Source: Anaerolineales bacterium
GTDB taxonomy: Bacteria > Chloroflexota > Anaerolineae > Anaerolineales > UBA6663
Assembly (NCBI GenBank): GCA_025057205.1
Contig: JANWXR010000002.1
Location: 1 to 39,898, forward strand
Direction: 5' to 3'
DNA length: 39,898 bases
Position 1 is the first letter of the stretch; each line of letters opens with the position of its first letter. The notes under the pieces are model-generated. The model was not told where the DNA came from and did no database searches. It saw only the letters and a program-made list of their open reading frames with translations. This document shows positions 11,871 to 36,433 of the stretch, piece after piece. A program made the position numbers and the translations under genes.

Positions 11871-11878
11871 TTCGCCGC

Positions 11879-12256
11879 TCAATGGGGTCGGCTTTTTTTA
11901 GCCACAATCCCTTCGCGCAATCGGGTCGTCATCTGCTGGGCATCGCCCGCGGCCAGATCGAGTTCGGCCGCGATTTGCTCATTCGACAAGTTCAACTCCA
12001 TCAAATAGAGACACAGCACCCACACCTTCAGAGGCTGATGATGACCTTCAAAGATCGTCTCCGTCAGATCATCAAACTGGCGCTGACAGGCTTGACATTC
12101 ATACCGTTGACGTTCTCTTTGCTGCGTGTGAAACCCCCGTTTCGTGACCTGCGCCGACCCACACCGGGGCCGGTGCGCGCCTTCCGGCCAACGCAGTTGG
12201 CGAAGCACTTCGTAATACTTGGCTTCATCCACCAGATGCTGGATGTGGATCAACAC
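11879..12256 (-). pseudogene. IS1595-family transposase, N-terminal zinc-ribbon/HTH part only
   Basis: LRWPEGAHRPRCGSAQVTKRGFHTQQRERQRYECQACQRQFDDLTETIFEGHHQPLKVWVLCLYLMELNLSNEQIAAEL matches the CxxC...CxxC Zn_Tnp_IS1595 pattern. The DDE domain is missing, leaving only 125 aa. Confidence 0.7.
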
Positions 12257-12456
12257 GGCACAACTCCCAACTGGTCTTGAAGACCAGATTATCGCAACCT
12301 CCTTGAAATCGGTTAAGAGCGAAACGTTCTACAAGCCTTGCAGCGGCCCCGCGCTTGGGCGGGATTGTTCCACACTCAAGCCTGCCAGTACGTCCGCTAA
12401 AGCTTCCAGCGTGCAAATCCTTGCCCGAACGCGCGTGCTTGTGTACCATTCCGTCC

Positions 12457-13230: not shown

Positions 13231-13243
13231 ACTTGTCTCCAGC

Positions 13244-15961
13244 ATGGACGTTCTTGCACCTGCCGCCCCTTCAGCGCCCGCCGAAGTCGTCTACCGCGAG
13301 ATCCTGGAGCGGAGCGGGAGCGGCGTGTTCCAGAGCACGGCGGAGGGGCGCTTCATCTTCGTCAATGCCGCGCTGGCACGGATTTGCGGTTACGCCTCAC
13401 CCGAAGAGATGAAGGCCGCCGTCACCGACATCCGCAACCAGCTCTACGTCCTGCCCCAGCAATACGACGATTACCTCCGTGAGATGGAAGCCAGCGATGA
13501 AGCTCCCGGCCAGGAGGTGCAAATTTACCGCAAGGATGGCACGCGCCTGTGGGCCCAAATCCGGGCGCGCGCCGTGCGCGGCGAGGACGGTCGGACGCTA
13601 TATTACGAGGGCACACTCGAAGACGTCACCGCCCGCCGCCAGACCCAGGCACGACTGGAACGGAGCGCGCGCCAGCTCACCGCGCTCAGCCAGATGGGCC
13701 TGGCGGTGACCTCCAGCCTGGATCAGACCATCGTCCTCAACCGCGTTCTGGACGAAATTCTCAACTTGCTGAACGTGGACAGCGTGGCCGTGCTGCTGTT
13801 GGAGGGCGAACAGCTGGTGATGGCCGCCGTCGGCGGCTCGGGCACCGTTAGCCTCATCGGGCGGCGGATGCCGGTCGGCGCGGGGGTGGCCGGCGAAGTC
13901 GTCCGCACCGGTCGTTCGGTGCTGATTCAGGATGAGGCCGGCCAGGCGCGGCTCTATCGTCCGCTGGAGCAGTTCACCGTGTACGAGGCGCAATCGCTGC
14001 TAGCGGCCCCCCTCAAGTTACAGGGCGAAGTCATCGGCGTGATCGAGGTGGTGCACGAAGCGCCGGCATCTTTTTTGCAGGACGATGTGCAAATGCTCGA
14101 GGCCGCTGCCAGCTGGGCCGCGCTCGCCATCGGCAACGCCCGCCAGCACGCGCGTTTGGAGCGCCGCCTCCAGGAAAGCGAAGCGCTGAGCGTCATCAGC
14201 CAGGCGCTCAACGAGACGCATGACCTCGACGCCATCCTCAAGATGATTGTAGACGCAGCCCGGCAAATCATTCCGAAAGTTGAGCGCGCCGTCATCCACC
14301 TGCTGGATGAGGACGCGCAGACGCTGCGCTCCGCGGCCTATTCTAGCGACGAGCCGCTGAGCCGCTCCGAGCTGGCGATGCGCCCCGGGGAGGGCGTGGC
14401 CGGACGCGTGCTGGCCGAGGGCATCCCCATCAACGTCGGCGATATCCGCACCGACCCGCGCTATCTGCCCAGCGGCTCGCACCACAACATGCACTCACTG
14501 CTGGTCGCGCCGGTGCAAAGCGGTGAGCGGCGGCTGGGCACCATCAGCGTACAGAGCGCCGAACCGCATGCCTTCTCCTCCGACGATCAACAATTGCTGC
14601 GGACGCTGGGTTTGCAGGCCGCGTTGGCCATCGAGAACGCACGTCTGCTGGCCGCCGAGAGCCGCGCCCGCCACGACGCCGAAGTGCTGGGCGAGATTAG
14701 CACCATCCTCAGCTCGACGCTCGACTACGAGCGTGTGCTCGACCAGTTGCTGGAACAGGTGAACCGTCTCGTCCCCTCCGACATGGCCGAACTGATGTTG
14801 GTGGAAGGCAACCTGTACGCGCGCACGGTGCGCCAGCGCGGCTACGAGAAGTTCGGTGAGGAGGTGGTGCGCGCTGTGGGCGCCATGGCGCTCGACATCA
14901 CGGCCACGCCGCGTCTGCGGCATATGACCGAGACCGGCCAGCCGCTGGTCATCCCCGATGTACGCGCCGATCCTGGCTGGCTGCCGCGCGCTGCGATGAT
15001 CCACATCGGCTCTTGGGTAGGCGCGCCGATTGTGGTGCAGAACCAAGGCGTCATCGCCTTCTTTTCCCTGGAGAAGCTGGAGTCGGGCTATTACACCGCT
15101 GAGCATGGACACCGGCTGGCGGCTTTCGCTGGGCAAGCTTCGCTCGCGATTCAGAATGCGCGCCTGTATGCCAACCTAGAACGTGCGCTGCGCCACGAAA
15201 AATCCATGCGCGCCCAGCTGGTGCAATCGGAAAAGCTGGCCGCGATGGGCCGGCTGGTGGCCTCAGTGGCGCATGAGTTGAATAACCCGCTGCAGGCGAT
15301 TCAGAACTCCCTCTATCTCGTCAGCCAGGAGAACGAGCTTACCCCGCAGGCGCGCGAGGACTTGCAGGTGGCGCTAACGGAGGCCGACCGCATGGCCGCG
15401 CTCATCAGCCGGTTGCGCGAGACGTACCGCCCGGCCACCGCCGAGCAGTTCCGCTACGAATCACTCAACTCGATTATCGAAGAGGTACAGAAGCTCATCT
15501 CTACGCACCTGCGTCACAACAACGTGCACTTCAGCTTTGAGCCTGACCCTCGCCTGCCCAAAGTGCCCGGTCTGCGCGACCAGCTGAAACAAGTGATCCT
15601 GAACCTGTGCCTGAATGCGGTGGAAGCCATGCCGCGCGGCGGCGAGCTGCGTTTGCGCACTGAACATCTCCCCAAGCAGGGCGAGGTGCTGGTGACCATC
15701 TCCGATACCGGCGAGGGTATTGACCCAGTAGACCTGCGCAACATCTTCGAACCGTTCTTCACCACCAAGGAGGGCGGCACAGGCCTCGGCCTGTTCATCA
15801 CGCACGAGATTATCCAGCGCCATCAAGGCCGCGTCGAAGTGGAAAGCCAAGTTGGACACGGAGCGACGTTCCGAGTCTGGCTGCCGGTGACGCGCACCGA
15901 AATGTCCCACACCGACCCGGGCGCGCAGTTTGACGCGAAAAGTATAAACCAATGGTGCTAG
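13244..15961 (+). CDS. Sensor histidine kinase: PAS, three or four GAF domains, HisKA, HATPase_c
   Basis: PAS reads FQSTAEGRFIFVNAALARICGYASPEEM. GAF blocks end in ...AIGNARQHARLE, ...AIENARLLAAE and ...AIQNARLYANLE. The H-box is VASVAHELNNPLQAI. N/G boxes are LNLCLNAVEAM, DTGEGI and GGTGLGLF. I chose the ATG at 13244, 14 nt after the amidase stop. Confidence 0.9.
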   Translation: MDVLAPAAPSAPAEVVYREILERSGSGVFQSTAEGRFIFVNAALARICGYASPEEMKAAVTDIRNQLYVLPQQYDDYLREMEASDEAPGQEVQIYRKDGTRLWAQIRARAVRGEDGRTLYYEGTLEDVTARRQTQARLERSARQLTALSQMGLAVTSSLDQTIVLNRVLDEILNLLNVDSVAVLLLEGEQLVMAAVGGSGTVSLIGRRMPVGAGVAGEVVRTGRSVLIQDEAGQARLYRPLEQFTVYEAQSLLAAPLKLQGEVIGVIEVVHEAPASFLQDDVQMLEAAASWAALAIGNARQHARLERRLQESEALSVISQALNETHDLDAILKMIVDAARQIIPKVERAVIHLLDEDAQTLRSAAYSSDEPLSRSELAMRPGEGVAGRVLAEGIPINVGDIRTDPRYLPSGSHHNMHSLLVAPVQSGERRLGTISVQSAEPHAFSSDDQQLLRTLGLQAALAIENARLLAAESRARHDAEVLGEISTILSSTLDYERVLDQLLEQVNRLVPSDMAELMLVEGNLYARTVRQRGYEKFGEEVVRAVGAMALDITATPRLRHMTETGQPLVIPDVRADPGWLPRAAMIHIGSWVGAPIVVQNQGVIAFFSLEKLESGYYTAEHGHRLAAFAGQASLAIQNARLYANLERALRHEKSMRAQLVQSEKLAAMGRLVASVAHELNNPLQAIQNSLYLVSQENELTPQAREDLQVALTEADRMAALISRLRETYRPATAEQFRYESLNSIIEEVQKLISTHLRHNNVHFSFEPDPRLPKVPGLRDQLKQVILNLCLNAVEAMPRGGELRLRTEHLPKQGEVLVTISDTGEGIDPVDLRNIFEPFFTTKEGGTGLGLFITHEIIQRHQGRVEVESQVGHGATFRVWLPVTRTEMSHTDPGAQFDAKSINQWC

Positions 15962-16026
15962 TTCGATAGGAGTTACACAGTTGCGCCCGCGCTTCCGTAT
16001 ATGTGGCGGTCATATCCGCCGGAAGT

Positions 16027-16070
16027 CCGCCAGATATGGCGGCAACTCCCGCCAACTGCGTAAGTCCTAA
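16027..16070 (-). repeat. Short scar resembling the IS terminus and family-B hairpin arm
   Basis: GCCAGATATGGCGGC (16029-16043) equals the family-B hairpin arm. AACTGCGTAAG-TCCTAA (16054-16070) resembles AACTGCGTAAGGTGAG-TTCCTAA at 1436-1458. Confidence 0.35.
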
Positions 16071-16205
16071 CATTCAATTTCGTTTGGCCTTCATCTCGGC
16101 GATGTTCAATGTGCTCCTGGATTTATTTCACTCTCTCCACCCAGACGCCATGCCTCACCCGATGTCCATCGCCGAGTTCGCTCTCTAAAAACTAGCACCA
16201 AAGGT

Positions 16206-16211
16206 TATAAT
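16206..16211 (+). promoter_or_regulatory. Candidate -10 box (perfect TATAAT) upstream of the response-regulator gene
   Basis: A TATAAT hexamer lies 18 nt upstream of the ATG at 16230 in otherwise GC-rich DNA. No convincing -35 was found. Confidence 0.25.
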
Positions 16212-16229
16212 CCTGGTGGGAAAGTCGCC

Positions 16230-17024
16230 ATGAAACTCTCCGGACGCATCCTCATCATTGAGGACGAAGCCAGTCTGCGCCAGACCATGACGCGCATCAT
16301 ACGCCAGACCGGCTGCGAGGTGACCGCCGCCGCCAACGGCGTCGAAGCGCTGCAGCGCCTGGCCACCGCCACTTACGACCTGGCCTACCTGGACATCCAC
16401 CTGCCGGAGATGGACGGCATGCAGGTGCTCCGCGAGATTCATCGTCTGTATCCGCAGATGCCGGTCGTGCTGTTCACGGCATACGCTTCGCTGGATACCG
16501 CCATCGAAGCCATGCGACTGGGCGCGACCGATTACCTGCTCAAGCCGCTCAACCCGGAGCTGCTCATCTCGCGCACCGAGTCCATCCTAAAAAAGCAAGC
16601 AGTGGAGCAGCGCCGGCGCGAATTGCAAGCGCAAATCGTCAACCTCCAGGAAGAGCTGCGCCGGCTGGAAGAAAGCCTAGCCCCGCAGCCCTCGGCCAAT
16701 CTGCCGCAAAGCAGCCGCTTCTTGAAGCTGGGCCAGCTCAGCCTCGACCTGCAGGCGCGCCGCGCCATCTTCGCAGAGCGCGAATTGCAGCTGCCGCCCT
16801 CAGCCTTCGACTACCTGACGGTGCTCATGCGCCACGCCCCGGATGTGGTGGACTATCAGACGCTGGTCAACGAAGCGCAGGGCTACCAGGCCGACCGACG
16901 CGAAGCGCAGGAATTGGCGAAGTGGCACATTCACGAACTGCGCGACTCCCTCGAGCCGGACCCCGGAAATCCGCGCCATATCCTCAATGTTCGCGGCGTA
17001 GGTTATCGTTTGGTTATAGACTGA
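16230..17024 (+). CDS. Response regulator: receiver, coiled-coil linker, OmpR/PhoB-type winged-helix DNA-binding domain
   Basis: REC reads ILIIEDEASL...LAYLDIHLPEMDGMQV...LLKP. The C-terminus reads LSLDLQARRAIFAERELQLPPSAFDYLTVLMRH...VRGVGYRLV. Confidence 0.9.
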   Translation: MKLSGRILIIEDEASLRQTMTRIIRQTGCEVTAAANGVEALQRLATATYDLAYLDIHLPEMDGMQVLREIHRLYPQMPVVLFTAYASLDTAIEAMRLGATDYLLKPLNPELLISRTESILKKQAVEQRRRELQAQIVNLQEELRRLEESLAPQPSANLPQSSRFLKLGQLSLDLQARRAIFAERELQLPPSAFDYLTVLMRHAPDVVDYQTLVNEAQGYQADRREAQELAKWHIHELRDSLEPDPGNPRHILNVRGVGYRLVID

Positions 17025-17049
17025 GGCCACAGGGCCGACGAACTTCGTA

Positions 17050-17150
17050 ACTGGAGTCTGGCAAATTCCGGTTGGGGCACAAGATATGGCGGTTAGGTAA
17101 AGCAGCAGGCCGCCATATCTGGCGCCAAAAGTTCCATTTGCCGGACTCCG
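17050..17150. mobile_element. 101-bp palindromic MITE-like element (family B), copy 2, with a 7-bp direct duplication
   Basis: It is flanked by TTCGTAA at 17043-17049 and 17151-17157. The terminal inverted repeats are CTGGAGTCTGGCAAAT / ATTTGCCGGACTCCGG, with a central 11-bp perfect hairpin. It lies between the regulator and hybrid-kinase genes. Confidence 0.85.
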
Positions 17151-17262
17151 GTTCGTAAAAACCCCGCCCCTTTCCTTAATACAACCCCCTCACTGCGCCT
17201 GCCGCTTTCCCGGCGGCGACGCGACTTTCCCAACTTATGCCTCCAAAACCCAAACAGACCGG

Positions 17263-20199
17263 ATGCCGAAGCCCCGCGATAATAGCAGTATGTTGCCTAG
17301 CCCTCTTGTCTCATCACCCACCGTGCCTGCCCGAATTCTGATCGTTGACGATCACCCCAATACGGCTTCGATGCTGGCGCGCGCTCTCAAACAATTTGAC
17401 AAACCGGTCGAAGTGCTCACCGCCCGCAGTGGGCGCGAAGCGCTAGACATTATGCATCAGCAGCCAGTAGAAGTGCTGATTACCGATTTTATGATGCCGG
17501 GCATGAACGGCCTGGAACTGATCGAGCAAGCGCAGAAGAAGCAGGCGCCGTCGCAGATCATCCTGGTCACCGCGTATGACAGCCCCGGCCTGGCCGCTAC
17601 CGCGCGCCGGCTCAAAGTCAGCCACTATCTTATCAAACCCGTTCAGCCGGAGAAGCTGCGTGACCTGGTGGGACAGGCCATCGAGACGCTTTCCCGGCCT
17701 GCACCGTCAAAGCCGTCCGCCGAGATGCCTCCTGCCTCACAGTTCCGCATCCTCATCGCCGACGACCAATCCGACAACACGCAACTGCTGGCGACGCGCC
17801 TGTCGAGCGAAGGCTACACGTTCATCACTGCCAGTGATGGCCAGGAGACGCTGGACAAAGTTCGCGCCGAAAAGCCCGACCTGGTGCTGCTCGATGTGAA
17901 CATGCCGGGCAAGAGCGGCTTCGAAGTTCTCGCCGAAATCCGCGCCGACCCGGACATCGCCCACATCCCCGTCATCGTGTTGACCGCCGCGCGCACTTCG
18001 GTGCGCGACATCCGCGAAGGCCTCGGCCTGGGCGCGGACGATTACGTGACCAAGCCCTTCGATTGGCGTGAGCTGGCCGCCCGCGTCCGTTCCAAGCTGC
18101 GCGTCAAGTACGCCGAAGACAGACTGCGTCGCCGCAATCGTGAACTCAGCCTGCTGCCGGCCATCGGCCAGGATCTGAGCGCACGCACCGACGTGGACGA
18201 GCTGGGTCATGTGGTGCTGCGCCGCGCCGTGGAGGCCCTCGGTGCGGCCAGCGGCAACCTCGCCCTCATCGGATTGAACGATCAATGGCAGTACCAAAGC
18301 TACATAGCACGCGAAATCAGCGGCTGGGACTGGGAACGGGCGCAGGCCTGGCTAACGGCACGCAGCCTGATTGCCCAAGTGATGAACTCCGGGCAAGGCA
18401 CCATCCTGACCGACACCGCCGGCAACGCCGACTGGCCCCGCTTCGATTCCGACGAAAGCCCGGTGCGCTCGGCGATCTGTGTGCCGCTCCTGGGTCGGCG
18501 CGGCCCCCTTGGCACGCTCACCCTGCTGCACGAAACACCCGCGTACTTCGCCCAGGACCATATCGGGCTGCTGCAAGCCATCGCCAGCCAGGCCGCCATC
18601 GCCCTCGAAAATGCGCAGCTGTATGCCGCCGAGCGGCGGCGCGTGAACGAATTGGTGGCCCTGAATCAGCTCTCACAAGAGCTGGGCCGGATGATGCGCT
18701 CCGAAGAGCTGATTGACAGACTCCCACAGCTCGTCTGTAACGCGCTGGGATACCCCACCGTTACGCTGTGGTTGATGAACTCCGAATCCACCGGCCCGGA
18801 CGCCCTCAAGCTACGCAGCGTCGCCGGAATGGAAAACGCGCCACGCATGTCCCTACTGGCGCTGGCCCCGCAACAGGTAGCCGCAACCGGCCAGCCAGCC
18901 TGCCTCTCCGGTTCGGTGGAAGAGCGCACCGGCCATCGCGCCACGAAGTTGCCCACCAGCCAGCTGCCAACCCACTCGGCGGTGGCCGTGCCGTTGTGCG
19001 AAAAGTCCAGGGTTATTGGCGTAGTCGCCATTCACAGTCGCTTCCCCAACGCTTTCCAGGAAAGTGACCGCGTGCTGCTGGAAACCTTGGCCGCGCAGGT
19101 CATCTCCGCCCTGGAGCGCATCCGCTGGTTCGAGTCGGTGGAGCGTGAGCAGCAGCGATTGGCGGCGGTCCTCAACGCCACGCCCGAAGCCATCTTGGGC
19201 CTGGACGGCTTGGGCAACCTGCAATTCATCAACCCCGCCGGCTTCCGGCTGTGGGACGGCGTGAGCCTGCGCCTAGGCGAACCTTTGCCAAAAGGCACAC
19301 CCTACGATGAGTTGGTGCAGTTCCTCGACCAGGCGCGCGGCATGGCTCAGGCCGGGCTGCTGACGCGCCAGCTGCAATGGCCGGATCGGCGCGTCTTCAA
19401 CGTCTCGGTCACGCCGCTGGAGCCGGACGGGCAGGTCGTCATGCTGCACGATGTGACGCACTTCAAGGATATGGAGCGCGTCAAGAACGAATTCCTGGCC
19501 TCCGCCTCGCACGACCTGAAAAACCCGCTGACCGCCATCATCGGCTACGCCGACCTACTCCAGCGCGTGGATGATCCGACCGAGCGCCAGCTCCAGTTCA
19601 TTCAACGCATTCAAACCGCCTCGAGTCGCATGCTGGACCTGGTGAAAGACCTAATGGAGCTGGCACGCATTGATATGGGCCTAGAATTGCGTAAAGAACG
19701 CCTGGATTTGCACGACCTGCTCGCCGCTGAACTGGAAGACTTCCGTGACCAGGCCGCCGTCAAGCATCAGACTGTTCATTTGGAGCCGGCCACGGGGCCG
19801 GTCGTTGTCGAGGTAGATTTAGCCCGAATGCTGCAAGTGCTGCGTAACTTGGTGAGCAACGCCATTAAGTACACACCTGAGGGCGGGCAAATTACGCTGA
19901 GCGCCTCGGCTAGCGGGCAGGCCGGACAGTTTCAGGTGCGCGATACCGGGCTAGGCATCCCGGCGCCAGACCTGCCGCGCATCTTCGAGAAGTTTTACCG
20001 GGTACACACCACCGATCGCGAGGGCATCGAAGGCAGCGGCCTCGGCTTGGCGATCGTCAAAGCCATCGTTGAGCAGCATGGTGGTCAGGTTGCCGTGGAG
20101 AGCACACTCGGACGCGGCAGCTGCTTTACCGTGACGTTGCCTTTGGCCGAGATAGCCGAGACAACCCACAAACCGCTTCCCGTTCAAGCCGAATCTTAA
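17263..20199 (+). CDS. Hybrid sensor kinase: REC, REC, GAF, GAF, PAS, HisKA, HATPase_c
   Basis: There are two receivers (ILIVDDHPN...ITDFMMPGMNG and ILIADDQSDN...LLDVNMPGKSG). The H-box is FLASASHDLKNPLTAIIGY. ATPase boxes are LRNLVSNAIKYT, DTGLGI and GSGLGLAIVK. An alternative ATG lies nine codons downstream. Confidence 0.9.
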   Translation: MPKPRDNSSMLPSPLVSSPTVPARILIVDDHPNTASMLARALKQFDKPVEVLTARSGREALDIMHQQPVEVLITDFMMPGMNGLELIEQAQKKQAPSQIILVTAYDSPGLAATARRLKVSHYLIKPVQPEKLRDLVGQAIETLSRPAPSKPSAEMPPASQFRILIADDQSDNTQLLATRLSSEGYTFITASDGQETLDKVRAEKPDLVLLDVNMPGKSGFEVLAEIRADPDIAHIPVIVLTAARTSVRDIREGLGLGADDYVTKPFDWRELAARVRSKLRVKYAEDRLRRRNRELSLLPAIGQDLSARTDVDELGHVVLRRAVEALGAASGNLALIGLNDQWQYQSYIAREISGWDWERAQAWLTARSLIAQVMNSGQGTILTDTAGNADWPRFDSDESPVRSAICVPLLGRRGPLGTLTLLHETPAYFAQDHIGLLQAIASQAAIALENAQLYAAERRRVNELVALNQLSQELGRMMRSEELIDRLPQLVCNALGYPTVTLWLMNSESTGPDALKLRSVAGMENAPRMSLLALAPQQVAATGQPACLSGSVEERTGHRATKLPTSQLPTHSAVAVPLCEKSRVIGVVAIHSRFPNAFQESDRVLLETLAAQVISALERIRWFESVEREQQRLAAVLNATPEAILGLDGLGNLQFINPAGFRLWDGVSLRLGEPLPKGTPYDELVQFLDQARGMAQAGLLTRQLQWPDRRVFNVSVTPLEPDGQVVMLHDVTHFKDMERVKNEFLASASHDLKNPLTAIIGYADLLQRVDDPTERQLQFIQRIQTASSRMLDLVKDLMELARIDMGLELRKERLDLHDLLAAELEDFRDQAAVKHQTVHLEPATGPVVVEVDLARMLQVLRNLVSNAIKYTPEGGQITLSASASGQAGQFQVRDTGLGIPAPDLPRIFEKFYRVHTTDREGIEGSGLGLAIVKAIVEQHGGQVAVESTLGRGSCFTVTLPLAEIAETTHKPLPVQAES

Positions 20200-20322: not shown

Positions 20323-22818
20323 GTGCATCTGATGTCATCTCCCTCCCCACAGAACACATCGGCAACGCCAGCGCCCGCTATGCCAACTTCGGCGGAAGCA
20401 AAAAACGCGCAGCGCGCCGCCCTGATTACGCTCATCGTCACCGCCGGGTTGACGGTGTATTTTGGGTTTCTGGCTTACCGGCAGCTCGATACCAACTCGA
20501 TCTGGGCTACGCTGAATACGCTCGGCATGACGCTGGCCAACCTGGCCGGCTTCTGGTTCAGCCGACGGGGTCGCCATGTGCTCGGAACATGGCTGGTTCT
20601 GGGCGGCTTGATGGTCGGCGTAGTGACATCACCGGCCATACGAGCCGGTCTGGGCCTGGCCCTCTTTATTAGCGCACCCTTGTTTGTTGCCGTCGTTGCC
20701 GGTCAGACCCTGCCGCCACGACAGGTTCCCTGGGCCGTCGGCCTGGGGGTCGGGGCAGGCATCATCGCCGGGCTGGGAGACTACTTCTGGCCGTGGCCCC
20801 GCCCCCTCTCGCCGGTCTATCAAACCCTGCCCATCATCGCCACCGGCGTGGTGCTGATACTGGGCTGGGGGATCGTGCGCCGCTTCCCGCACTACAGCCT
20901 GCGTACCAAGCTGTTGATAAGCTCCGTCACCGTGGTGGCGCTAACGGTCGGCGCACAATCCATCATTTTCAGCCAAATCGCCACCTCCGAAATTCGTGCC
21001 CAGGTGGGCAACAGTCTGGTCGCTCTGGCTGAGGACCGGGCAACGACCATCGGCAGCCGGATCGGCCTGCAGGCGGACGTGCTGCGCGCGCTGGCGCTCA
21101 ACAAGTTCCTGCAGGACGGGCTGGAAGAGGCCAGTCGCACCAACACGCAGAGCGCCGAGGCCCTGCGCGCCGCCGATGAGCGCTGGCGCCGGGCCGTGGA
21201 GGCAGGCCGGCCGGACGACCCGCTTATCCTTCAGGTGCTCAACCATCCACTGGCCGGCGAACTCAATGAACTCCGCGAGCGTTTCTCGCAATCCGAGCTG
21301 TTCCTGACCACCGACCAACACGGCGCTACGGTCGCATCCACCCAGGTCGTAGAACGTTACTATCACGGCGACGAGGCCTGGTGGCAAACGGCCTCTTCAC
21401 GCGGCATCTTCATCGGCCTGATTGAGCAGGGTTTCGGTGGTCCTCGACTCGGCATTGCCGTTGCCGTGCCCGCTCACGAGCGTGAGCAGATCGTCGGCGT
21501 GGCGCTGACCTTGCTCCACCTCGACCAATTTGCGGATGACCTGGCAAGCGCACGCCGCGGCAAGACAGGCCGCACCGAGATTTACTTCGAAGGTGGGGGT
21601 GGGCTGAAGTTACACGAAGCTGCCGACGGCAGCCTCAAACTCGAACTAGAGAGAGAGGCGAGGTTAGATTTGCAGCGGTTGATTGCGTCATCGGAGCCAT
21701 TCCTTGAGATCGAACACGATGGAAAGGTGGCGTTATCCAGCTCTGCGCGCGTCCGTTCCAATCTCAAGGCAGACCCTATCGGCGACGAGAGGGGCTCCAT
21801 TACTGGCCTGGGCTGGTACGTCGTTGTCTCTCAAGAAAAGAACGAGGCTCTGGAGCCGGTGGCTGTGATCATGCGCGCCAACTTTCTCATCACAGTCGTC
21901 GCCCTGCTGATTGCCGGCCTGGCAGCGGTGGTGGTGGCCCAATTGCTGACGCGCCCCCTCACCCGTCTGACCGCCGTGGCCGCCCGCGTCTCCGCCGGCG
22001 ACCTGAAGGTGCAGGCACCGGTGGAAAGCGGCGACGAGATCGGCGCGCTGGCGACGACCTTCAACGTAATGACCACACAGCTGCGTGAAACGCTCGAGGG
22101 CTTGGAACAGCGCGTGGCCGACCGCACGCGCGCCCTGGCCACCAGCGCTGAAGTCAGCCGACGGCTCTCCACCCTCCTTGACCCTACTGAGCTGGTGAAG
22201 CAGGTCGTTGAGCGAGTACAGCGCGCGTTCGGCTATTACCATGTACACATCTATCTGTTCGATGAGTCGCGTGAAAATCTGGTGATGAGGGGCGGCACGG
22301 GCGAGGCCGGCGCATTGATGCTGACACGCGGCCACAAGCTGCCGCGCGGCAAAGGCTTAGTCGGCCGCGCCGCCGAGACCAACCAGATCGTGCTTGTGCC
22401 CGAAACCGCGCGCGACCCCGGCTGGCTGCCCAACCCGCTGCTGCCGGAAACGAAGGCTGAGGTCGCCGTGCCTATTGCCATCGGTGAAGAAGTGCTGGGT
22501 GTGATCGATGTCCAGCACAACGTGGTCGGTGGGCTGACGCAAGACGACGCCGACCTGCTCCAGGCGATTGCGAACCAGATGGCCATCGCGCTCCAGAACG
22601 CCCGCATCTACCGGCAGGCGCAACGCCGGGCCGAGGTGGAAGCGCTGGTGAACTCCATTAGCCAGAGGCTTCAATCCACCACAACGGTAGATGAGGCGCT
22701 TCAAGTAACGGCGCGCGAAGTGGGCCGCGCCCTGGGCGGCGTGCGCGTACAGGTGCGTCTGGCCCCAACAAACGGACACACAGCGCCGCCGACCGGCGTT
22801 GCGGAATCGCAGAACTAG
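20323..22818 (+). CDS. Membrane sensor with no recognisable output: multi-TM N-terminus, Cache-like periplasmic domain, HAMP, GAF, conserved C-terminal tail
   Basis: The N-terminus has about six hydrophobic helices. A Cache-like segment reads ...[19 protein letters not shown].... HAMP reads [44 protein letters not shown] reads [13 protein letters not shown]...[30 protein letters not shown]. The protein ends 65 aa after the GAF domain with no kinase, cyclase, GGDEF or HTH. The track start at 20323 is GTG. An ATG alternative is at 20332. Confidence 0.85.
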
Positions 22819-22828
22819 GGAACCCGCT

Positions 22829-25552
22829 ATGCCACCAAACACTTCTGCGCCTTACCTCTCTCACGGCCACGACCCGTGGCTGGTCATGTTGTCCGTCGCG
22901 ATGGCGGTGCTGACGGCATACGCCGCGCTCGAACTGGCGTGGCGCATAGTTGGGGCGCGCGGCCGGGAGCGCTATCTGTGGCTGGCCAGCAGCGCAGTCG
23001 CTCTCGGCGCCGGCGCCTGGTCCGCGCATTTTATTGGGATGTCGGCCCTTCAGCTGCCTGTGCCGGTGCGGTATGACGTGCTCACCGCGCTGGCGGCGCT
23101 GCTGCCGGTGGTGGCCGGCGCAGCGCTGGCATTCTGGCTCAGCGGCAGAGCCAGAGCCGAAGTACGCCCGTGGCAGATCGGCCTGGCTGGCTCGGTCCTG
23201 GGCGGGGCCATTGCCGGTATGTACTTCATCGGCATGGCTGCCCTGCGCCTCCGAGCGACGTTCAGCTACGACCCGGCCTGGTTGGCGTTTGCGTTCGTCG
23301 TCGCCACAGTCACTTCGAGCTTTGCGCTTTGGCTGCACGTAGGCCTCCGTGCCGCCGCTACGTCTGCTAGGCAGCTGGGCAAAATCGCCGGCGCCCTGGC
23401 GCTGGGCGGCGCGATTGCCGGCCTGCACTACGCCGGGATGCGCGCGGCTAAGTTCCTGCCGACGACCGACTACTTGCCTAATCCCATCGGCCTGGTTGAC
23501 ATTGACGTACTCGGCTCCGCAGCCATCATCGTTGGCGTTCTAACCGTAATCACCACCGGCCTGACGGTCTTGGTGTTCAACCAACAATTGCTGAGTCAAC
23601 TCAGCTTTACACGCAAATTCCTGCTCGTCAGCGCGCTCTTCATCACGCCGCTTCTTGTCGTCATCGGCGTGTTCTCCTTCGAGCTGTACGATCGTATTGA
23701 TAAATACGGCTACCGCGAACTGTACGGCGTTCGCTATGTGACGCCGCTGCAAAGCCTGCTCGTTAACTTGCAATTGCATCAGGAAGCGCTGGCCGAATAC
23801 GCCGCCGGCCGACTGACCGAACAGCAGTTGCTCGACGTTCGGAGCGCCGTTGATGCCGACTTAGCCACCCTTGCCGAACTAGACCGCCGGTATGGCACGA
23901 TATTGCAAACTAACACATGGCTATCCAGTCTGAGGTATAAGTGGTCTGGCCTGCAAAGCCAGACACTCCGGTTCTCGCCACAGGCCGCCCGGTTGCGTCA
24001 TATCGAATCGGCAACGAACGTACGTGAGTTGATCGCCTACATCGGCGACAGCTCTTTCCTAAGCCTTGACCCCGACCTGGATAGCCACAACTTAATGAGG
24101 GCAACACTAATCCACCTGCCGGATAATCAAATGTTGCTCAACCGGTCGGCGCAGATGTTCCTGGCAACACTACACGGAGAACTGGTAACGCCGGAAGAAA
24201 GAGCACAGCTCTCAGCAGCGCTCACATTATTGCGTGCTAATCTCGATGCGTTGGAGGCTGAGCTTGAGGTAGCTTATCGCAACCACCCAGACGGCTTCAT
24301 TGAGCCGAACCTTGCACCGGAGTTTGCCGCCTATCGCCAGGTCCTGACAGAATATTTGGACTTCCTGAAATTTCAGCTGAACCTGACGAAACCGACGGTC
24401 TCCCTCTCGGATGCCCGGCGCCTCATCGGCGAAGCGCGCGCCGCAAATCAGCGGTTTTACGCTGTGGTCAGTGAAAATTTGGCCGCCAGCATCCAGGGCC
24501 GGATTGACCGCTTGACTTTTCGCCTGGCCAGTTTGGTTGGGTTCAGCCTATTCACCGGCGCCTTGGCGCTGGCCTTCGGCCAGGCGGTGTTCCGCGTCAT
24601 CCTTCGGCCGCTGCGCGCCCTGACTGACGCCACACAGGCTCTAGCAGGCGGCGATTTGAGCGTGCGCGTCAACGTGGTCGGCTCTGATGAGATAAGCACG
24701 CTGGCGCTGGCCTTCAACGACATGGCCCGCCGCCTGCAGCTGAGCCAGACCGAATTGGCTGAGCGCAACCGCGCTTTGGCCACTTCGGCAGAGGTCAGCC
24801 GCCGCCTCTCGACGCTGCTGGATGAAAAGCAGCTGGTGCGGGAGGTCGTCGAGCAGTTGCAACTGGCCTTCGGCTATTACCATGTCCACATCTACCTTTT
24901 CGACGAGCAGCGCGAAAATCTGATAATGGCCGGCGGCACCGGCCCGGTGGGCGCGGCGCTGCTAGAGCGCGGCCACAAGCTACCACGTGGCAAGGGCCTG
25001 GTCGGCCGCGCCGCCGAGACCAACGCACCCGTCATCGTGCCGAACACCACGCTCGACCCAGGCTGGCTGCCCAACCCGCTACTGCCGGACACCAAAGCCG
25101 AAGTCGCCGTCCCCATCGCTCTGGGCAACGAAGTGCTCGGTGTGCTGGACGTGCAGCAGAACATGGTCAACGGCCTCTCGGCTGCCGACGCTGAGATGCT
25201 TCAGGCCATCGCCAACCAGGTCGCGCTGGCGCTGCGCAACGCGCGCTCCTATGCCCGCGCGCAACGCACCGCCGAGCGCGAGGCTTTGGTCAACAGCATC
25301 AATCGCAAGATCCAATCTGCCGCTAGCCTGGAATCCGTGCTAGACATTGCCGCGCGCGAACTAGGCCTGGCGCTGAGAGCGCGCACCGCCGTTGCAGAAC
25401 TCAACCTGCGCCCCGCAATGGAACGCTCAACCACTATTGCGACGGCTGACGAACGAAGGCCGAGCGCTCGCGCCAAACTTGAAATAAGCAGAGCGAACCC
25501 GGTCAGCACCGGCTTCATTGACGCAGAAACCAACGGCCGCAGTCACAGTTAA
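22829..25552 (+). CDS. Membrane sensor with no recognisable output: MHYT domain, helical periplasmic/linker domain, HAMP, GAF, conserved C-terminal tail
   Basis: Three MHYT-type motifs are present ([29 protein letters not shown]) in six TM helices. HAMP reads [41 protein letters not shown]. The GAF domain is about 75% identical to that of the preceding gene. I chose the ATG at 22829 because the track start at 22799 is TTG and overlaps the previous gene. Confidence 0.85.
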
Positions 25553-25561
25553 AGTCGCGCT

Positions 25562-28500
25562 ATGAACGCACCTGAACTATCTCCCCACAAGAAAGCCGTA
25601 CCCGGCCTGAACACATTGCAGCGCATCTGGCAATCGCTGGTGCAGCCATCGGCGCTTATCACCGAAATCGGCGAACGCCGCCAGGCCGAGCTGCTGGCCT
25701 CCCTGACGCTGATCTTCATTTCTCTCTCGAGTGCAGGCGCGTTTGCCAACCTGGTGACCGTGCCAGGCCGCGGGTTCAATGCCGCCTCATGGGCGCTGTT
25801 GGCGACGACGCTCGTGACGCTGGTCGCATATCTTCTTAGTCGCAGCCGCTATTTTCGTCTGGGCGTGTGGCTCCTCATCATCATCCTTGTTGCAGGTGGC
25901 TTCTCTTTGGCTCAAAGTGACCCGAGCCGCGCCAGCTTTGCACTCTTCAGGTTTGTGCCACTTGCATTTGTCGTCACCAACATCTTTTTGAACTTTACCG
26001 GCGCCGCCATTGTGATGGCACTAACCGTTGCTGCCTTGCTGATGCTGCCTCTCTGGCTCGACGTGACGCCGCGCGAGGCCACTTCGCTGGCCGGTGCCCT
26101 TGGCGCGTTTGGCACGTTGCTGCTCATTGCCGCCGGCTTCCGCAACAAACTGGAACGCGACCGCCTGGCCGAGCTCTCGGCAGCCAATGAGAAACTGCGA
26201 ACCCTCGGTGCACTGCTGGAACAACGCGTCGCCGAACGTACCCGCGACATTATCCTGGCCGCCGACGTGGGCCGGTCATTAGCCAAAGCTCGCGACCTTG
26301 ACACACTCCTGGCCGACGCTGTAGAGCTGATTCGCGAACGCTTCGACCTGTATCACGTTCAAATCTACGTGACGGACTCCGCCGGGCACAAATTGCTGCT
26401 CCGCGCCAGTAGCGGCGAGGTGGGCGCAGAGCTGCTGCGCCGTCGACACTACCTGCCTGTCAGCCTCGGCTCGCTCAACGGCCAGGCAGCACTGGAACGC
26501 CGCCCAGTGCTCGTCACCAACACACTGTCCGACCCCAACTTCAAGCCCAATCCTCTCTTGCCGGAGACCCGCTCCGAGGCCGCCATCCCGCTTATCGCCG
26601 AAGGCCGTGTGCTGGGCGTGCTCGATCTGCAAAGCAATCAACCGGGTGCGTTCACGGCAGAGAGCCTGCCCGTCTTCGAGACACTGGCCGGCCAGCTCAC
26701 GATCGGCATCGAAAACGCGCTCCTGCTGCGGGAGGCCGAAGCCGCTCGCAACGAGCTGGCCGAGCAAACGCGCCGCCTCAGCCGCAGCGGCTGGCAGGCT
26801 TTCCTCGATGCCATTCACCGGGCTGAACATGTGGAACGCCGCTATGTGAGCGAGGCAGCAGAAGCCACAGAGCTCGCAGCAGCGGACGAAGAACGCTCCG
26901 TTTTGACCGTGCCCATGACCATCGCCGGCGAAGCCATTGGCGCACTGCGGGTGGAGGCCGGCGAACAACGTAGCTGGTCGGCAGATGAAGTCGAATTGGT
27001 AGAGGTGGTTGCTCGGCAGGTAGCCGCGCATCTGGATGACCTGCGCCTCATCGCTCAGGCCGAGCAATACCGCGCCGAGGCCGAGGACGCTATGCGTCGC
27101 CTGACGCGAGAGAGCTGGCAGATGTACCTGGTCGAAGCCGAGAAACCGCCCGCCTACGTGTACGACGGCGAGCAAGTTCAGACCGTGTCCGATGAAACCG
27201 CTTCGGTTGAACCCAGGCACATCTGGCCGCTGACCTTGCACGGCGAACGACTGGGCGAAATTGCCATCGAGGCCGAGACCGTCGGGCCGGAGGCCGAGCA
27301 CATCCTCGCTGCCGTCGCCGAGCGCCTCAGTGTGCATCTGGAGAACCTGCGCCTCTCCGCCCAGACCGAGCAGGCGCTCACCGAGAATCAAAAACGCGCC
27401 GACCAGCTAGCCCGACTCTCCGAGATAGAACAGGCGCTCTCATTGGCAAAGACCGAAGAGGAAATCATCGAAGCTATACAGCCCGCCTTCGACGCAAAGA
27501 ACCTGACGGCCATCACCCTTACCTACATCACCGGCGACGAACGCGGTCGGGCGATGACGCTCGATGGCGCGGCAGTCTGGGCTGACGGACGGTTCTGCCA
27601 CGACCGGTTGCCTGCTCTACAAAACCTGAGCCTTGAGAAGCACCCCCTCACACCGCTCTGGATGACGCGTGCCGCCGAACCGACCTTTGTCGGCGATGTG
27701 CTGACCGACCCGCGCGTCGGTGAAGCGGTACGGGCGTTGGCCCGTGAAGAGGGTTGGCGTTCACTGCTGTTGCTACCGCTCCGCAGCGGTGGCCGGTGGC
27801 AGGGGCTGCTCACCGTGAGCTGGGCAGAGCCGCGCACGCTTAGCGCCGATGAGGCCTTCTTCGCCGAGCGGTTGCTGGAGTCGGTGGCCGGCGTTACCGC
27901 CACCCGTTGTGCTTCCCTGGCGCAACAACGAGCTCTGGCAGAAAACCTGCGCCGCAACGAGGAACTGACCGCCCTCAATCGGCTTGTCATTAGCGCCGCT
28001 TCCGCGCGCGACGTGACGGAGCTGCTGCAATCCGCCGCCCGCGAAGTGGTGCAGCTGCTGCACGCCCGCAGCGCCGCCTTCGCCCTGCTGGAGCCGGACG
28101 GCCAGCATCTGCGATTGATCGCCGACTACACTACCACCAGCGACGAGCCGAGCGCCGTCGGCATGCTCATCCCCCTGGCGGGTAACCTCTCGACTCAATG
28201 GGTGTTCGAGCACCGGCGCGCGCTGGTGGTGAATGACGCCCAGAGCAATCCGCTGACGACGCCGATCCACGAGCTGATGCCCACGCGCCGGACGCAGGCG
28301 TTGCTCATCGCGCCATTGACAGTCCGCGGCGAGGTCATCGGCACGCTGGGCGTAGACCTGGAAGAAGTGGGCCGCACCTTCACCCCAAACGAAGTCTCGT
28401 TCGTCGAAACGCTGGCCGGCCAGCTGGCCGGTGTGCTGGAGAACCTGCGCCTCTACGCCGAAGCGCAACGCCGCGCCGAGCGCGAGTACCTCATCAACAC

Positions 28501-28633
28501 CATCACGCAGAAGATCCAGAGCACGACCACCGTGACCGGCGCACTGCAAACAGCCGTGCAGGAGCTGGGGCTGGCACTCAAAGCCAAACGTACACATGTA
28601 GAGCTAAGCCCGGCGCCGATCAACGGCCACTGA
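25562..28633 (+). CDS. Membrane-anchored multi-GAF protein (1023 aa) with no recognisable output and the same conserved C-terminal tail
   Basis: It has about five N-terminal TM helices, then a coiled coil, then repeated GAF and half-GAF-like modules ([30 protein letters not shown]; ...[16 protein letters not shown]...). It ends [50 protein letters not shown]. Confidence 0.85.
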   Translation: [1023 protein letters not shown]

Positions 28634-29400
28634 AGAAGTTATGGCCATGCCCTATGTGATTGCACTTTGGCATCAGAAAGGTGGAGTCTCCAAGACCACC
28701 ACGGCCTTAGCGTTGGCCGCCTGCCTAGTGGAGAAAGCTCACCCAACCCTGTTGCTGGACCTGGATCCACAGGGCAACCTGACCACCGGCCTAGGTCTCA
28801 ACCCGGCAGAAGCGCGTCACTCCCCCGCCGACTTGCTGCTTGGCAATGACACCGTCTCCCGCGTCGTTTGTGCAACTCCCTGGCCTGGCCTGGACATTAT
28901 CCCCTCCAACCCGGACATGGTGACGGTGAGCCGGTGGCTGCATGTGCGCGAGGGCTACGAGCCGGTGCTGCGCCATGCGCTGAGCCGGCCGGACGTTGCC
29001 GGTTACGACTTCGTCTTCCTCGATTGCCCGCCGATGCTCGGCCCCATCACCATCGCCGCGCTCACCGCCGCCCAGCTGGTCATCGTGCCCACGCAGTGCG
29101 AATACTTCTCGGTGCAAACGCTGGGCAGCAGCCTCAAGCTGGTACAGCTGGTGCGCGGGCGCACCAACCCGGGCTTGGCCTACCGCGTGCTCGTCACCCT
29201 CTTCGACCTGCGCGGCGCGCTGCACAGCCGCGTCCTCGCCCAATTGCAGCAACACTTCGCACCGGCCATGTTCCAAACCATCATCGGTGTGGACTCCAAG
29301 CTGCGCGAAAGCCAGCTCGTCGGAACGCCTATCACCTTGCATGCCCCTCATAGCCGAGGCACCCAGCAATATCGTCAACTGGCCGAGGAACTTTGCGCCT

Positions 29401-33975
<4,575 letters not shown>

Positions 33976-34033
33976 GTTTAGAAGGGAATTCGCCTCATTC
34001 GAGCCGTTCCATTCGTTTATAAATTTTCTTTAC

Positions 34034-35710
34034 ATGGCACGACCTTCCTATCTTGAGTGCGTTCACTGCGGCGATCGGCAGCCGTACGTTCCGTTCATAC
34101 CGCCGGTGTGTGCACGCTGCGGCTCAGAGTGGCTAGAGCCGTGGTACGACTACGCCGCCTTTAAGCGCGAGCTGCTGCGCGGGTTGCCAGGCCGCCCGGC
34201 CAATTTGTGGCGCTACCACGACGTCCTCCCGGTGGACGACCCGTTGCGCTTCGACCTGAACAGCGCCGGCGGTACGCCCATGTTGCACTCGCGCCGCTAC
34301 GCCGACCGCCTGCGCCACGCACAGCTCTACATCAAGGATGAACGCCATGGCCCGACCAGCTCGTTCAAGGACCGGCAGGCCGCGGTGGCCGTCGCCGCCA
34401 TGCTGGAAGCCGGCGTCCGTGAGTGCGTCATCGCCTCCACCGGCAACGCTGCCGTTGCCTACGCCTCCGCTTGCGCGCGTGCCGGCATCAAGCTGTGGGT
34501 GTTCATGACCAGCCTGGTGCCCAACGAGAAGCTGCGCGAAGCGGCGCTCTTCGGCGCAGAGGTCATCAAAGTCAGCGGCAACTACGACCAAACCAAGCAA
34601 ATCGCCGCTGACTTCGCCAAACGCCGTGGCCTGCTGCTGGACCGCGGTGCGCGCAGCATCCCGGCGCGTGAGTCCATGAAGACCATCGCCTATGAGATCG
34701 TCGAGCAGCTGGGCTGGCGCGCGCCGGACTGGTACATCCAATCGGTCAGCGGCGGGCTGGGGCCGCTCGGCGTCTATCACGGCTTCAGCGAGCTGCAACA
34801 CATGGGCCTGATTGACAAAATCCCCAAGCTGGGCATCATTCAGGCCGAAGGTTGTGCGCCGATGGTGCGCGCCTTCAAGGCAGGGCGGGACACCGCTGAG
34901 CCGGTGACGCCCGAGACGCGCATCGCCGTGCTTTCCACCGGCGACCCGGGCCGCACCTACACCTATCTCTGGCAGCTGGTGCAGAAGCATGGCGGCGCCA
35001 TGGAGAGCGTCTCCGACCATGCGGCCTGGGACTCGATGCTGACGCTGGCCAAGGCCGAAGGCATGGCCGTCGAGCCGGCTGCTGCCGTCGCCTTTGCCGG
35101 CTTCGAAAAGCTGCTAGCTCAGGGCCATATCCATTCGGAGGAGCTGGTCGTGATCAACGGCACCGGCCACACCTTCCCTGTGGAAAAGCACGTGCTCGGC
35201 GAGCAGTGGCACGTGGACGTGCACTTGAGCGACGACATGCGGCCGGCCCCGCGCGAGGGCCTGCTCGCCGCGCTCAACCAGCTCGATGAGAAGGTGACCA
35301 GCGTGCTGCTGGTGGACGACAATCCCGACGACGCGCTGCTCATCCGGCGGTTGCTGGAGAACCGCAAGTCGTACCGCGTCTTCACCGCCAGCAACGGCGT
35401 GGATGGACTGCGGCAAGCTCGCGAGCGCCTGCCTGACTTGATCATCACCGACCTAACCATGCCGGAAATGGATGGCTTCACTTTGCTGGAAGAATTGCGT
35501 CATGACGCGCGCACCCGCAACATTCCGGTAATTGTGGTCAGTGCACGCGACATCACCGCCGACGAGCGTGCCCGCCTGAACGAGGCAGCGATCGAGGCTC
35601 TTTACGAGAAAGGCTCACTCTCACCACGTGCGTTCGTGGAACAGGTCGTACAGGTGATCGGCGACAAGACGTCGCCGGGTGGAAAGACATCGCCGAACGG
35701 AGGTCATTGA
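34034..35710 (+). CDS. Threonine-synthase-like fold-type-II PLP enzyme with an N-terminal zinc ribbon, fused to a C-terminal receiver (REC) domain
   Basis: A CxxC...CxxC ribbon is present (CVHCGD...CARCGS). The PLP-lysine motif is PTSSFKDRQAAV, and STGNAA and GGLGPLG motifs follow. The C-terminal REC reads VLLVDDNPDDALLIRRLL...LIITDLTMPEMDGFTLL...VVSA. Confidence 0.8.
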   Translation: MARPSYLECVHCGDRQPYVPFIPPVCARCGSEWLEPWYDYAAFKRELLRGLPGRPANLWRYHDVLPVDDPLRFDLNSAGGTPMLHSRRYADRLRHAQLYIKDERHGPTSSFKDRQAAVAVAAMLEAGVRECVIASTGNAAVAYASACARAGIKLWVFMTSLVPNEKLREAALFGAEVIKVSGNYDQTKQIAADFAKRRGLLLDRGARSIPARESMKTIAYEIVEQLGWRAPDWYIQSVSGGLGPLGVYHGFSELQHMGLIDKIPKLGIIQAEGCAPMVRAFKAGRDTAEPVTPETRIAVLSTGDPGRTYTYLWQLVQKHGGAMESVSDHAAWDSMLTLAKAEGMAVEPAAAVAFAGFEKLLAQGHIHSEELVVINGTGHTFPVEKHVLGEQWHVDVHLSDDMRPAPREGLLAALNQLDEKVTSVLLVDDNPDDALLIRRLLENRKSYRVFTASNGVDGLRQARERLPDLIITDLTMPEMDGFTLLEELRHDARTRNIPVIVVSARDITADERARLNEAAIEALYEKGSLSPRAFVEQVVQVIGDKTSPGGKTSPNGGH

Positions 35711-35711
35711 G

Positions 35712-36092
35712 ATGGCTCCAACGATTCTCTACATCGAAGACAACCCGGACAACATGCTGCTGGTGCAGCGGGCGCTGGAGGCACGCGGTTACAACTTTCT
35801 CTGGGCGGCCAACGGCTTGAGCGGTTTGGCGGAGGCTGAGGCCAAACGCCCCGACCTGATCCTGCTCGACATCAACCTGCCCGATATTGACGGTTACGAA
35901 GTGGCGCGCCGCATCCGCGCCCACGCCGAGCTGCGCACGCTGCCCGTCATCGCCATCACCGCCAACGCCCTGCGCGGCGACGCCGAGAAAGCGCTTAACG
36001 CCGGCTGTGATGTGTACATGTCCAAACCCATCAACATCCGTGAACTGTGGGCTAAGATTAATTCCTTCTTGCCGAACGGAGCAGGCTTCTGA
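35712..36092 (+). CDS. Single-domain response regulator (CheY-like receiver)
   Basis: ILYIEDNPDNMLLVQRAL...LILLDINLPDIDGYEV...ITANALRGD...YMSKP. A GGAGG sequence lies 8 nt upstream of the ATG. The start is 1 nt after the stop of the preceding gene. Confidence 0.9.
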   Translation: MAPTILYIEDNPDNMLLVQRALEARGYNFLWAANGLSGLAEAEAKRPDLILLDINLPDIDGYEVARRIRAHAELRTLPVIAITANALRGDAEKALNAGCDVYMSKPINIRELWAKINSFLPNGAGF

Positions 36093-36321: not shown

Positions 36322-36412
36322 TACAGAAAAAGGCAAACCCGTCGAAAGGCGGGGGCGCAAAGTTACGGGTCTAAGCGCTTGCGGCTGCAAGCGGATGATC
36401 GCCGGACTGCCT
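36322..36412 (+). promoter_or_regulatory. c-di-GMP-I (GEMM-I)-like riboswitch aptamer
   Basis: The sequence reads GGCAAACCCGUC-GAAA-GGCGGGGGCGCAAAGUUACGGGUCUAAG-CGCUUGC-GGCU-GCAAGCG-GAUGAUCGCCGGACUGCC. It has the hallmark GGCAAAC, a GAAA tetraloop hairpin, the GCGCAAAG junction, and a UCUAAG...GAUGA tetraloop-receptor-like hairpin. From memory, V. cholerae Vc2 reads GGCAAACCAUUCGAAAGAGUGGGACGCAAAGCCUCCGGCCUAA. GGCA (36332-36335) can pair with UGCC (36408-36411). Confidence 0.7.
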
Positions 36413-36433
36413 GACGAACCACTTGCTCTCCCA

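Follow-up and report, generated by a model that had tools for sequence, protein, structure and literature searches.

Two-component signalling is usually drawn as one sensor kinase paired with one regulator. The locus described here raises the question of how several membrane sensors, none of them with an output domain of its own, could deliver what they sense. In a 39,898-nt stretch of an Anaerolineales genome (contig JANWXR010000002.1, hereafter the window), three such sensors are encoded in a row ahead of a ParA-type ATPase, one soluble histidine kinase and two receiver proteins, the first of which is fused to a threonine-synthase-like enzyme (ThrC-REC). We propose, with a probability of about 0.6, that this is a conserved multi-input two-component module, in which the sensors would couple through a shared C-terminal tail to a single kinase that controls a pyridoxal phosphate (PLP) enzyme and a CheY-like protein. 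New here are the shared sensor tail, an N-terminal peptide and coiled coil in the kinase, and a ParA that is optional while its position is fixed.

A recurrent array of sensors, kinase and receivers

Positions refer to the whole stretch, and domain calls come from Pfam and NCBIfam scans of the window's open reading frames (ORFs). A sequence-only reading of this DNA had picked out seven co-directional genes, whose order and spacing agree with the ORFs:

20323 to 22818, plus strand: P1, a membrane sensor of 831 aa (ORF and Pfam)
22829 to 25552, plus strand: P2, an MHYT membrane sensor of 907 aa counted from its ATG (the open frame starts at 22799)
25562 to 28633, plus strand: P3, a multi-transmembrane anchor with a GAF array, 1023 aa (ORF and Pfam)
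28641 to 29432, plus strand: ParA, a Soj-like ATPase of 263 aa (Pfam AAA_31/CbiA)
29401 to 33975, plus strand: P5, a soluble PAS/GAF histidine kinase of 1524 aa (Pfam)
34034 to 35710, plus strand: P6, ThrC-REC, 558 aa (Pfam PALP and REC)
35712 to 36092, plus strand: P7, a single-domain receiver of 126 aa, CheY, DivK or PleD-REC like (Pfam REC)

The signs of an operon are the short intergenic gaps (10, 9, 7, -32, 58 and 1 nt, all of them 58 nt or less) and a single overlapping pair, parA and the kinase gene, which share 32 nt. Scans for promoters and terminators were consensus matches only. Terminator-like sites are not enriched between 19500 and 38000, where 14 were found against 15.5 expected from shuffled sequence, and those listed all fall inside coding sequence. 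A long antisense ORF (30046 to 33396, minus strand) was dismissed as a by-product of high G+C.

As the sequence-only reading had held, P1 to P3 carry no known output domain: profile, PDB and fold searches returned none, and neither Pfam nor NCBIfam matched a kinase, cyclase, GGDEF/EAL, HD-GYP, MCP or DNA-binding module in them. Matches to MCP models are confined to HAMP regions, the MCPsignal domain itself being unmatched in both collections. P1 has a multi-transmembrane region, HAMP (3e-16) and GAF (1e-19) domains; P2 has an MHYT domain (3.5e-29), a helical region, and HAMP (2e-16) and GAF domains; P3 has four GAF or GAF-like modules behind a multi-transmembrane N-terminus. Most of the domains read from the letters were thus confirmed by Pfam, although the HAMP domains of P1 and P2 (E of about 1e-16) had not been listed and the Cache domain given to P1 is weak (dCache_1 scores 20 bits, the cut-off being 45); relatives of P1 do score for dCache.

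The array recurs well beyond this genome. Our census covered 86 related loci, including 80 metagenome loci fetched around ThrC-REC, and scored them with home-made profiles; tail-bearing sensors and ParA were counted in the 40 loci with at least 6 kb of upstream sequence. Where the sequence is long enough to tell, the kinase core lies directly upstream of ThrC-REC (74/74 loci), and 40/40 loci have one or more tail-bearing sensors upstream (one to four within reach). A REC gene follows ThrC-REC in 77 of 78, and 17 loci have a further REC. In 12 of 54 loci, another thrC-like gene, this one unfused, is present downstream. Two loci found through the tail profile alone again show the order tail, kinase, PALP-REC. 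Across loci the input modules of the sensors vary (dCache, MHYT, plain transmembrane anchors or PAS), each combined with HAMP and/or GAF. The neighbourhood predicted to be conserved is therefore conserved for sensors, kinase, ThrC-REC and REC but not for ParA, which is found in only 8 of the 40 complete loci.

Searching with ParA itself, at one genome per species, returned six close relatives, all from Anaerolineae or Anaerolineales metagenome-assembled genomes, the other matches being ordinary chromosomal soj genes at about 40% identity. One relative (L001) retains the whole array, and four others (L002-L005) retain one to four sensors upstream, ParA, a kinase or peptide-bearing protein downstream of it, ThrC-REC and REC. 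Sensors, kinase, ThrC-REC and REC, but no ParA, are found in L081 and L083, two relatives with 72-75% identity in ThrC-REC. Dozens of independent genomes and metagenome contigs share the gene order, which is therefore more than chance. The module is real and widespread in Anaerolineae, and it is apparently undescribed: literature searches turned up neither the tail nor the ThrC-REC fusion nor an operon that joins ParA to a kinase.

The two receivers, P6 and P7, keep the acidic pocket and phospho-acceptor Asp in the pattern DD...D...T/S...K; the P7 receiver scores 2.9e-27 in Pfam. P6 consists of an N-terminal zinc ribbon, a threonine-synthase-like PLP part (PALP, 3e-66) and a C-terminal REC domain (1.6e-19). 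Its ThrC part can be aligned with threonine synthases of solved structure (about 1e-37) and retains both the SFKDR lysine motif and the STGN loop. The family is very conserved, with more than 120 clusters at 72% identity or above to the window protein. ThrC-REC probably serves as the system's output.

The array probably begins one gene upstream of the seven listed above, at a hybrid kinase whose orthologues occupy the 5' end of the array wherever sequence extends far enough (high-scoring in L083, L158, L001, L105 and L131, and also in L164):

17263 to 20199, plus strand: hybrid kinase with the order REC-REC-GAF-GAF-HisKA-HATPase_c (Pfam), outside the set picked out by the sequence-only reading

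Still further upstream on the same strand lie a histidine kinase with one PAS and three GAF domains and an OmpR-type regulator (13184-15961 and 16230-17024), so that about 23 kb of the window consists of co-directional signalling genes. At least two related arrays have an NMT1/THI5-like gene, of a type related to periplasmic binding proteins, 5' of the sensors (L081 1-24 and L164 502-1506); the window has none.

The shared sensor tail and the kinase N-terminus

P1, P2 and P3 all end in a shared tail of about 50 residues. Reading the three side by side gives the consensus AEREALINxIsQKIQsxTTVExALQxAxRELGxALgAxRxxVxL, and a hidden Markov model (HMM) of the tail places it as follows:

22609 to 22767, plus strand: tail of P1, 53-residue core, 77 bits, stopping 16 aa before the C-terminus
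25250 to 25408, plus strand: tail of P2, 76 bits, stopping 47 aa before the C-terminus
28454 to 28612, plus strand: tail of P3, 90 bits, stopping 6 aa before the C-terminus

No further match to this HMM was found among the rest of the window proteins. In 99 unique sequences, its matches are confined to the C-termini of output-less proteins and lie 3-47 aa from the end. Across 87 proteins, the tail is the most conserved part of the last 260 residues, with a column identity of 0.48-0.56 versus 0.23-0.40 in the preceding GAF. Since it is the best-conserved segment and a common end point in 99 sequences, the tail is not a decaying remnant.

The tail has no match in Pfam. Against PDB sequences, its profile aligns with the opening part of GAF domains from cyanobacteriochromes and phytochromes (8w26, 3.6e-15; 6oap, 9.5e-13; NpR6012g4, residues 11-53), and the part matched is the connecting helix, first helix and strand-1 region, only the first 45-50 residues. 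A complete GAF fold takes about 140-170 residues, and the proteins end 3-47 aa beyond the tail. An AlphaFold2 (AF2) model of P1 residues 599-831, built from a shallow alignment of window paralogues and fragments (predicted local distance difference test, pLDDT, 88.6), shows a GAF whose last helix continues for 45 residues and is followed by a second helix, the last 27 residues of the model being disordered. Foldseek returned only GAF, tandem-GAF and GAF-PHY structures. On these profile matches and the predicted fold, the tail is a conserved two-helix module of GAF-junction origin, and it is not a known output domain.

Proteins with such a tail are numerous. An exhaustive HMMER search with the tail profile returned 12,583 representative proteins at E<=0.001. 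Among the best 150 of these, 88-91 have a strong match (40-80 bits) at the extreme C-terminus, and the remainder are giant multi-GAF kinases with a weak match at each GAF junction. In a word-indexed protein database, the 53-residue profile found 28 short fragments, which come with neither architecture nor taxonomy. Cluster look-ups for tail proteins gave a single name, 'GAF domain-containing protein', from metagenomes. Some of the representative proteins (P0178, P0198, P0229, P0243, P0196 and P0202) have two or three strong tail-like segments (39-60 bits), internal as well as terminal; these may be fusions of two tail proteins, or tails may also serve as internal junctions. In the low-complexity ends past the tail, an N-G-[HN] motif recurs (...INGH*, ...TNGHTAPP and ...SPNGGH* at the C-termini of P1, P3 and P6); it is also found in a linker of the P5 kinase (TLNGHH) and in many relatives, and may be an effect of composition.

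The kinase P5 consists of PAS and GAF repeats followed by HisKA (7.2e-20) and HATPase_c (1.3e-28). Its GAF array is collinear with that of P3, with 30% identity over 536 aa and 36% over 275 aa (BLASTP). In an alignment of 108 kinases, the H-box core residues HELRTP are invariant, and four positions of a short N-terminal peptide (R9, L13, F14 and D16) are nearly so:

29401 to 29448, plus strand: kinase N-terminal peptide MSKDLYSKRLEDLFSG, followed by a Pro-rich linker and a coiled coil

The pattern is M..[KR][KR][VLI]x.LF[SA][DEG], then a variable linker and the coiled coil E.EALRARV.ELE. The peptide is basic and hydrophobic and predicted to be helical, and the linker behind it is disordered. 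Exactly one protein per locus carries it, nearly always the kinase; only in L005 is it found on a soluble tail protein instead. In this more distant, ParA-bearing locus (10740-13115 and 15363-19088), the product of the gene following parA combines the peptide with a long coiled coil, GAF domains and a tail of its own, so peptide and tail can occur in one chain, and the kinase is membrane-anchored with a receiver at its end.

The minimal kinases among the relatives (about 620-660 aa, 59-77% identical to each other) have the peptide and coiled coil, then three small modules, each with four strands and a long helix, and finally the dimerization/histidine-phosphotransfer and catalytic domains (DHp-CA), with no membrane or recognised ligand-input domain. 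The AF2 model of one of them has modest confidence (pLDDT 68). A repeat module of about 110 residues (RRLTxEGWQxYL...GFVYD...PLxVRGExIGxL...ENLRL) occurs in both kinases and sensors, namely in the window at 29401-33975 and 25562-28633 and, three in tandem, in the minimal kinases P0302-P0421; AF2 models it as four strands and a long helix, and Pfam recognises only a partial GAF.

ParA and a proposed route from sensor to kinase

The window ParA is of the Soj type by profile and structure matches. It scores 4.5e-42 against AAA_31, has the deviant Walker A motif KGGVSKT, and aligns end to end with Soj, the closest structure being that of Thermus thermophilus (1wcv, 5.8e-46; 2bek, about 1e-45). The Arg equivalent to the DNA-binding R189 of Soj is retained. 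An exact-sequence look-up of this protein gave no public record. Apart from the 8 of 40 complete loci, ParA is present in L136, L004 and L005. Where it occurs, its gene always lies between the last tail gene and the kinase, with its 3' end overlapping the kinase start, by 32 nt in most ParA loci. Canonical soj loci (L007-L080) have parB downstream, whereas the window ParA adjoins the kinase, and a scan of 25 ORFs found no ParB, CheW, CheA or other adaptor encoded in the window. The idea that ParA scaffolds the core system did not survive the census: being absent from about 80% of otherwise complete loci, it cannot be the core scaffold and is at most an accessory member, an add-on of particular lineages.

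We envisage the following route. One to four membrane sensors would detect different signals, none of them having a catalytic output. The tail would be their output, physically coupling them to the dedicated kinase encoded directly downstream; that they signal to it by direct contact is plausible. The conserved tail, the collinear GAF arrays of P3 and the kinase, and the kinase peptide lend indirect support to the idea that the sensors feed this one kinase. In its minimal form this kinase has no membrane or ligand input of its own, but it carries the peptide and the coiled coil, together with GAF-like modules that share homology with the sensor modules. Phosphate would pass from it to the neighbouring ThrC-REC, whose threonine-synthase-like PLP enzyme would thereby be switched, and to the small CheY-like receiver. 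In the window's clade, the array has gained a Soj-like ParA between the last sensor and the kinase, to which it would be translationally coupled; its probable role is to position or partition the kinase, or assemblies of kinase and sensors, on the nucleoid. A bolder version, which we put forward only tentatively, is that the tail proteins form a large unrecognised class of output-less receptors. These would assemble on a dedicated kinase through an interface between tail and peptide or coiled coil, giving an MCP-independent, array-like complex that controls an amino-acid-pathway PLP enzyme by phosphorylation and has acquired ParA in some lineages.

Several observations weigh against this proposal. 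In a minority of loci (L083, L086, L114 and L151), the kinases have transmembrane or PAS N-termini and no peptide, yet tail proteins are present beside them, so any pairing of tail with peptide is not universal. With its four PAS and four GAF domains, the window kinase could sense without the upstream proteins, and the tail could merely cap a dimeric helical stalk. On the output side, the hybrid kinase at 17263-20199, itself an array member, could be the true partner of either receiver, and ThrC-REC is borderline against curated models (TIGR00260, 168.9 with a cut-off of 167.1; NF006050, 250 with a cut-off of 303).

It is unlikely, in our estimate, that the system centres on ParA, with the kinase peptide acting as a ParB-like activator of ParA, clusters of kinase and sensor being spread over the nucleoid, and chromosomal Soj standing in where the operon has no ParA; such a system would resemble PpfA/TlpT, ParC/ParP or McdA/McdB. 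In 11/11 ParA loci the gene overlapping the 3' end of parA does encode a peptide-bearing protein, the peptide is N-terminal, basic and helical with a disordered linker behind it, and the ParA is Soj-like with its DNA-binding Arg kept. The [KR][KR]LxxLF of the peptide also resembles the [RK]GLxALL of ParB N-termini from 54 soj-parB loci, and hhalign places the two in the same register. However, that alignment is weak (P = 0.011, probability 3.8%), an HMM of the same ParB N-termini misses the kinase peptide, the window encodes no ParB, CheW or other adaptor, and the peptide is equally present in about 25 loci without ParA within 10 kb. The census thereby ruled out a peptide specific to ParA, and we keep the resemblance to ParB only as a rival idea because the ParB HMM fails to detect the peptide.

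We are more doubtful still that the sensors are kinase-dead paralogues, that is, multi-GAF kinases minus DHp-CA which heterodimerise with the kinase along a GAF and coiled-coil spine and serve it as anti-kinases or co-sensors, much as RetS does for GacS, the tail being a remnant of the junction. The collinearity of P3 with the kinase GAF array, the place of the tail at DHp helix 1 of the kinases in a joint alignment, and the weak tail matches at every GAF junction of giant multi-GAF kinases would all fit. But a remnant would be expected neither to be the best-conserved segment of its protein nor to share one end point in 99 sequences, and P1 and P2, with a single GAF each, have little to pair along the kinase array. 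We give the least credit to the view that the sensors are independent, being clustered paralogues that bind or sequester ligands through their GAF domains or act on unlinked partners, with a gene order that reflects co-expression only. GAF domains often bind small molecules, sensor number and type vary from one to four per locus, and the window kinase has its own PAS and GAF inputs; against this, tail genes accompany kinase and ThrC-REC in every one of the 40 loci and in 2/2 loci found through the tail, and minimal kinases have no membrane or recognised ligand-input domain. The related fallback of the sequence-only reading, a lineage-specific expansion of paralogues, accounts for the varying number of sensors but leaves the invariant tail, kinase and ThrC-REC unexplained. 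The multi-input module, with sensors coupled through their tails to one kinase, is the reading we retain.

Surroundings, significance and comparison with known systems

Just 3' of the REC gene lies a cyclic di-GMP-I riboswitch of the GGC variant (36323-36415, plus strand; 71 bits against a gathering score of 59), and three relatives have one at the same place (L001 19482-19572, L002 9395-9496 and L003 18053-18154). The gene after the riboswitch encodes a subtilase (Peptidase_S8) in L002 and L003, and an ORF also follows in L001; past the riboswitch the window has no subtilase homologue and no ORF above 69 aa for 1.4 kb, until obg at 37883. Near the other end, a 922-aa ORF (1549-4317, minus strand) has weak matches to HerA/DUF87-type ATPases. 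Its 5' end overlaps a predicted tRNA-Gln (4102-4194, minus strand), so its true start must lie further in. G+C is 0.54 in bases 1-2000 versus about 0.63 elsewhere in the window.

The interest of the array rests mainly on the large unrecognised family of tail-bearing receptors and on the ThrC-REC output. In the Anaerolineae, which are abundant in sediments, sludge and soils, up to four output-less receptors would converge on one kinase, with an enzyme in place of a transcription factor as the regulator. Should the tail prove to be a docking module, it would be a new way of wiring many inputs into one kinase and would define a protein family of thousands of members for which there is no domain model. 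The ThrC-REC fusion would link environmental sensing directly to amino-acid metabolism. Loci with and without ParA make up a natural experiment in how signalling complexes come to recruit a positioning ATPase.

The locus has the hallmarks of classical two-component systems, namely a kinase with a HisKA H-box and HATPase_c, and receivers with the phospho-acceptor Asp encoded next to it. In its arrangement it invites comparison with chemosensory arrays (MCP-CheW-CheA-CheY). Both have several transmembrane, HAMP-containing receptors with a common cytoplasmic end and no enzymatic output, one soluble kinase co-encoded with a CheY-like receiver, and sometimes a ParA-family ATPase in the operon, as in the ParA-positioned arrays of Rhodobacter sphaeroides (PpfA/TlpT) and Vibrio (ParC/ParP). 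Unlike those arrays, the locus described here has no MCP signalling domain, CheW, CheR, CheB or CheA-type Hpt/P2/P5 kinase; its kinase is of the ordinary HisKA/HATPase_c kind, its target would be a PLP enzyme and not a motor, and ParA is mostly absent. Chromosomal Soj/ParA-ParB systems share with the window a ParA about 40% identical, with the deviant Walker A motif and the conserved Arg, but there is no parB in the window, and the overlapping downstream gene encodes a histidine kinase.

Sensors that modulate another kinase are known from RetS and LadS, which act on GacS; both keep their kinase domains and act through DHp contacts. The likeness is that extra sensors would modulate one kinase by protein contact and not by phosphotransfer, while the sensors described here lack DHp-CA, have a dedicated tail, and are always encoded in cis immediately upstream of the kinase. 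The stressosome, built from RsbR paralogues, RsbS and RsbT, likewise gathers paralogous sensors with variable inputs and one conserved C-terminal module around a single kinase. There the conserved module is STAS and the kinase a serine kinase; here they are a two-helix GAF-junction tail, with no STAS match in Pfam or NCBIfam, and a histidine kinase. The tail is homologous to the connecting helix, first helix and strand-1 region of phytochrome and cyanobacteriochrome GAF domains, but the tail proteins stop at strand 1 and have neither a chromophore pocket nor its Cys.

On the output side, ThrC-REC joins a receiver to an enzyme, as do CheB, PleD and RpfG, and phosphorylation therefore probably switches catalysis. 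It differs from them in having its receiver at the C-terminus and, as the enzyme, a threonine-synthase-like PLP protein that begins with a zinc ribbon. The logic of the array resembles that of a chemoreceptor array or a stressosome, but it has no defining component of either.

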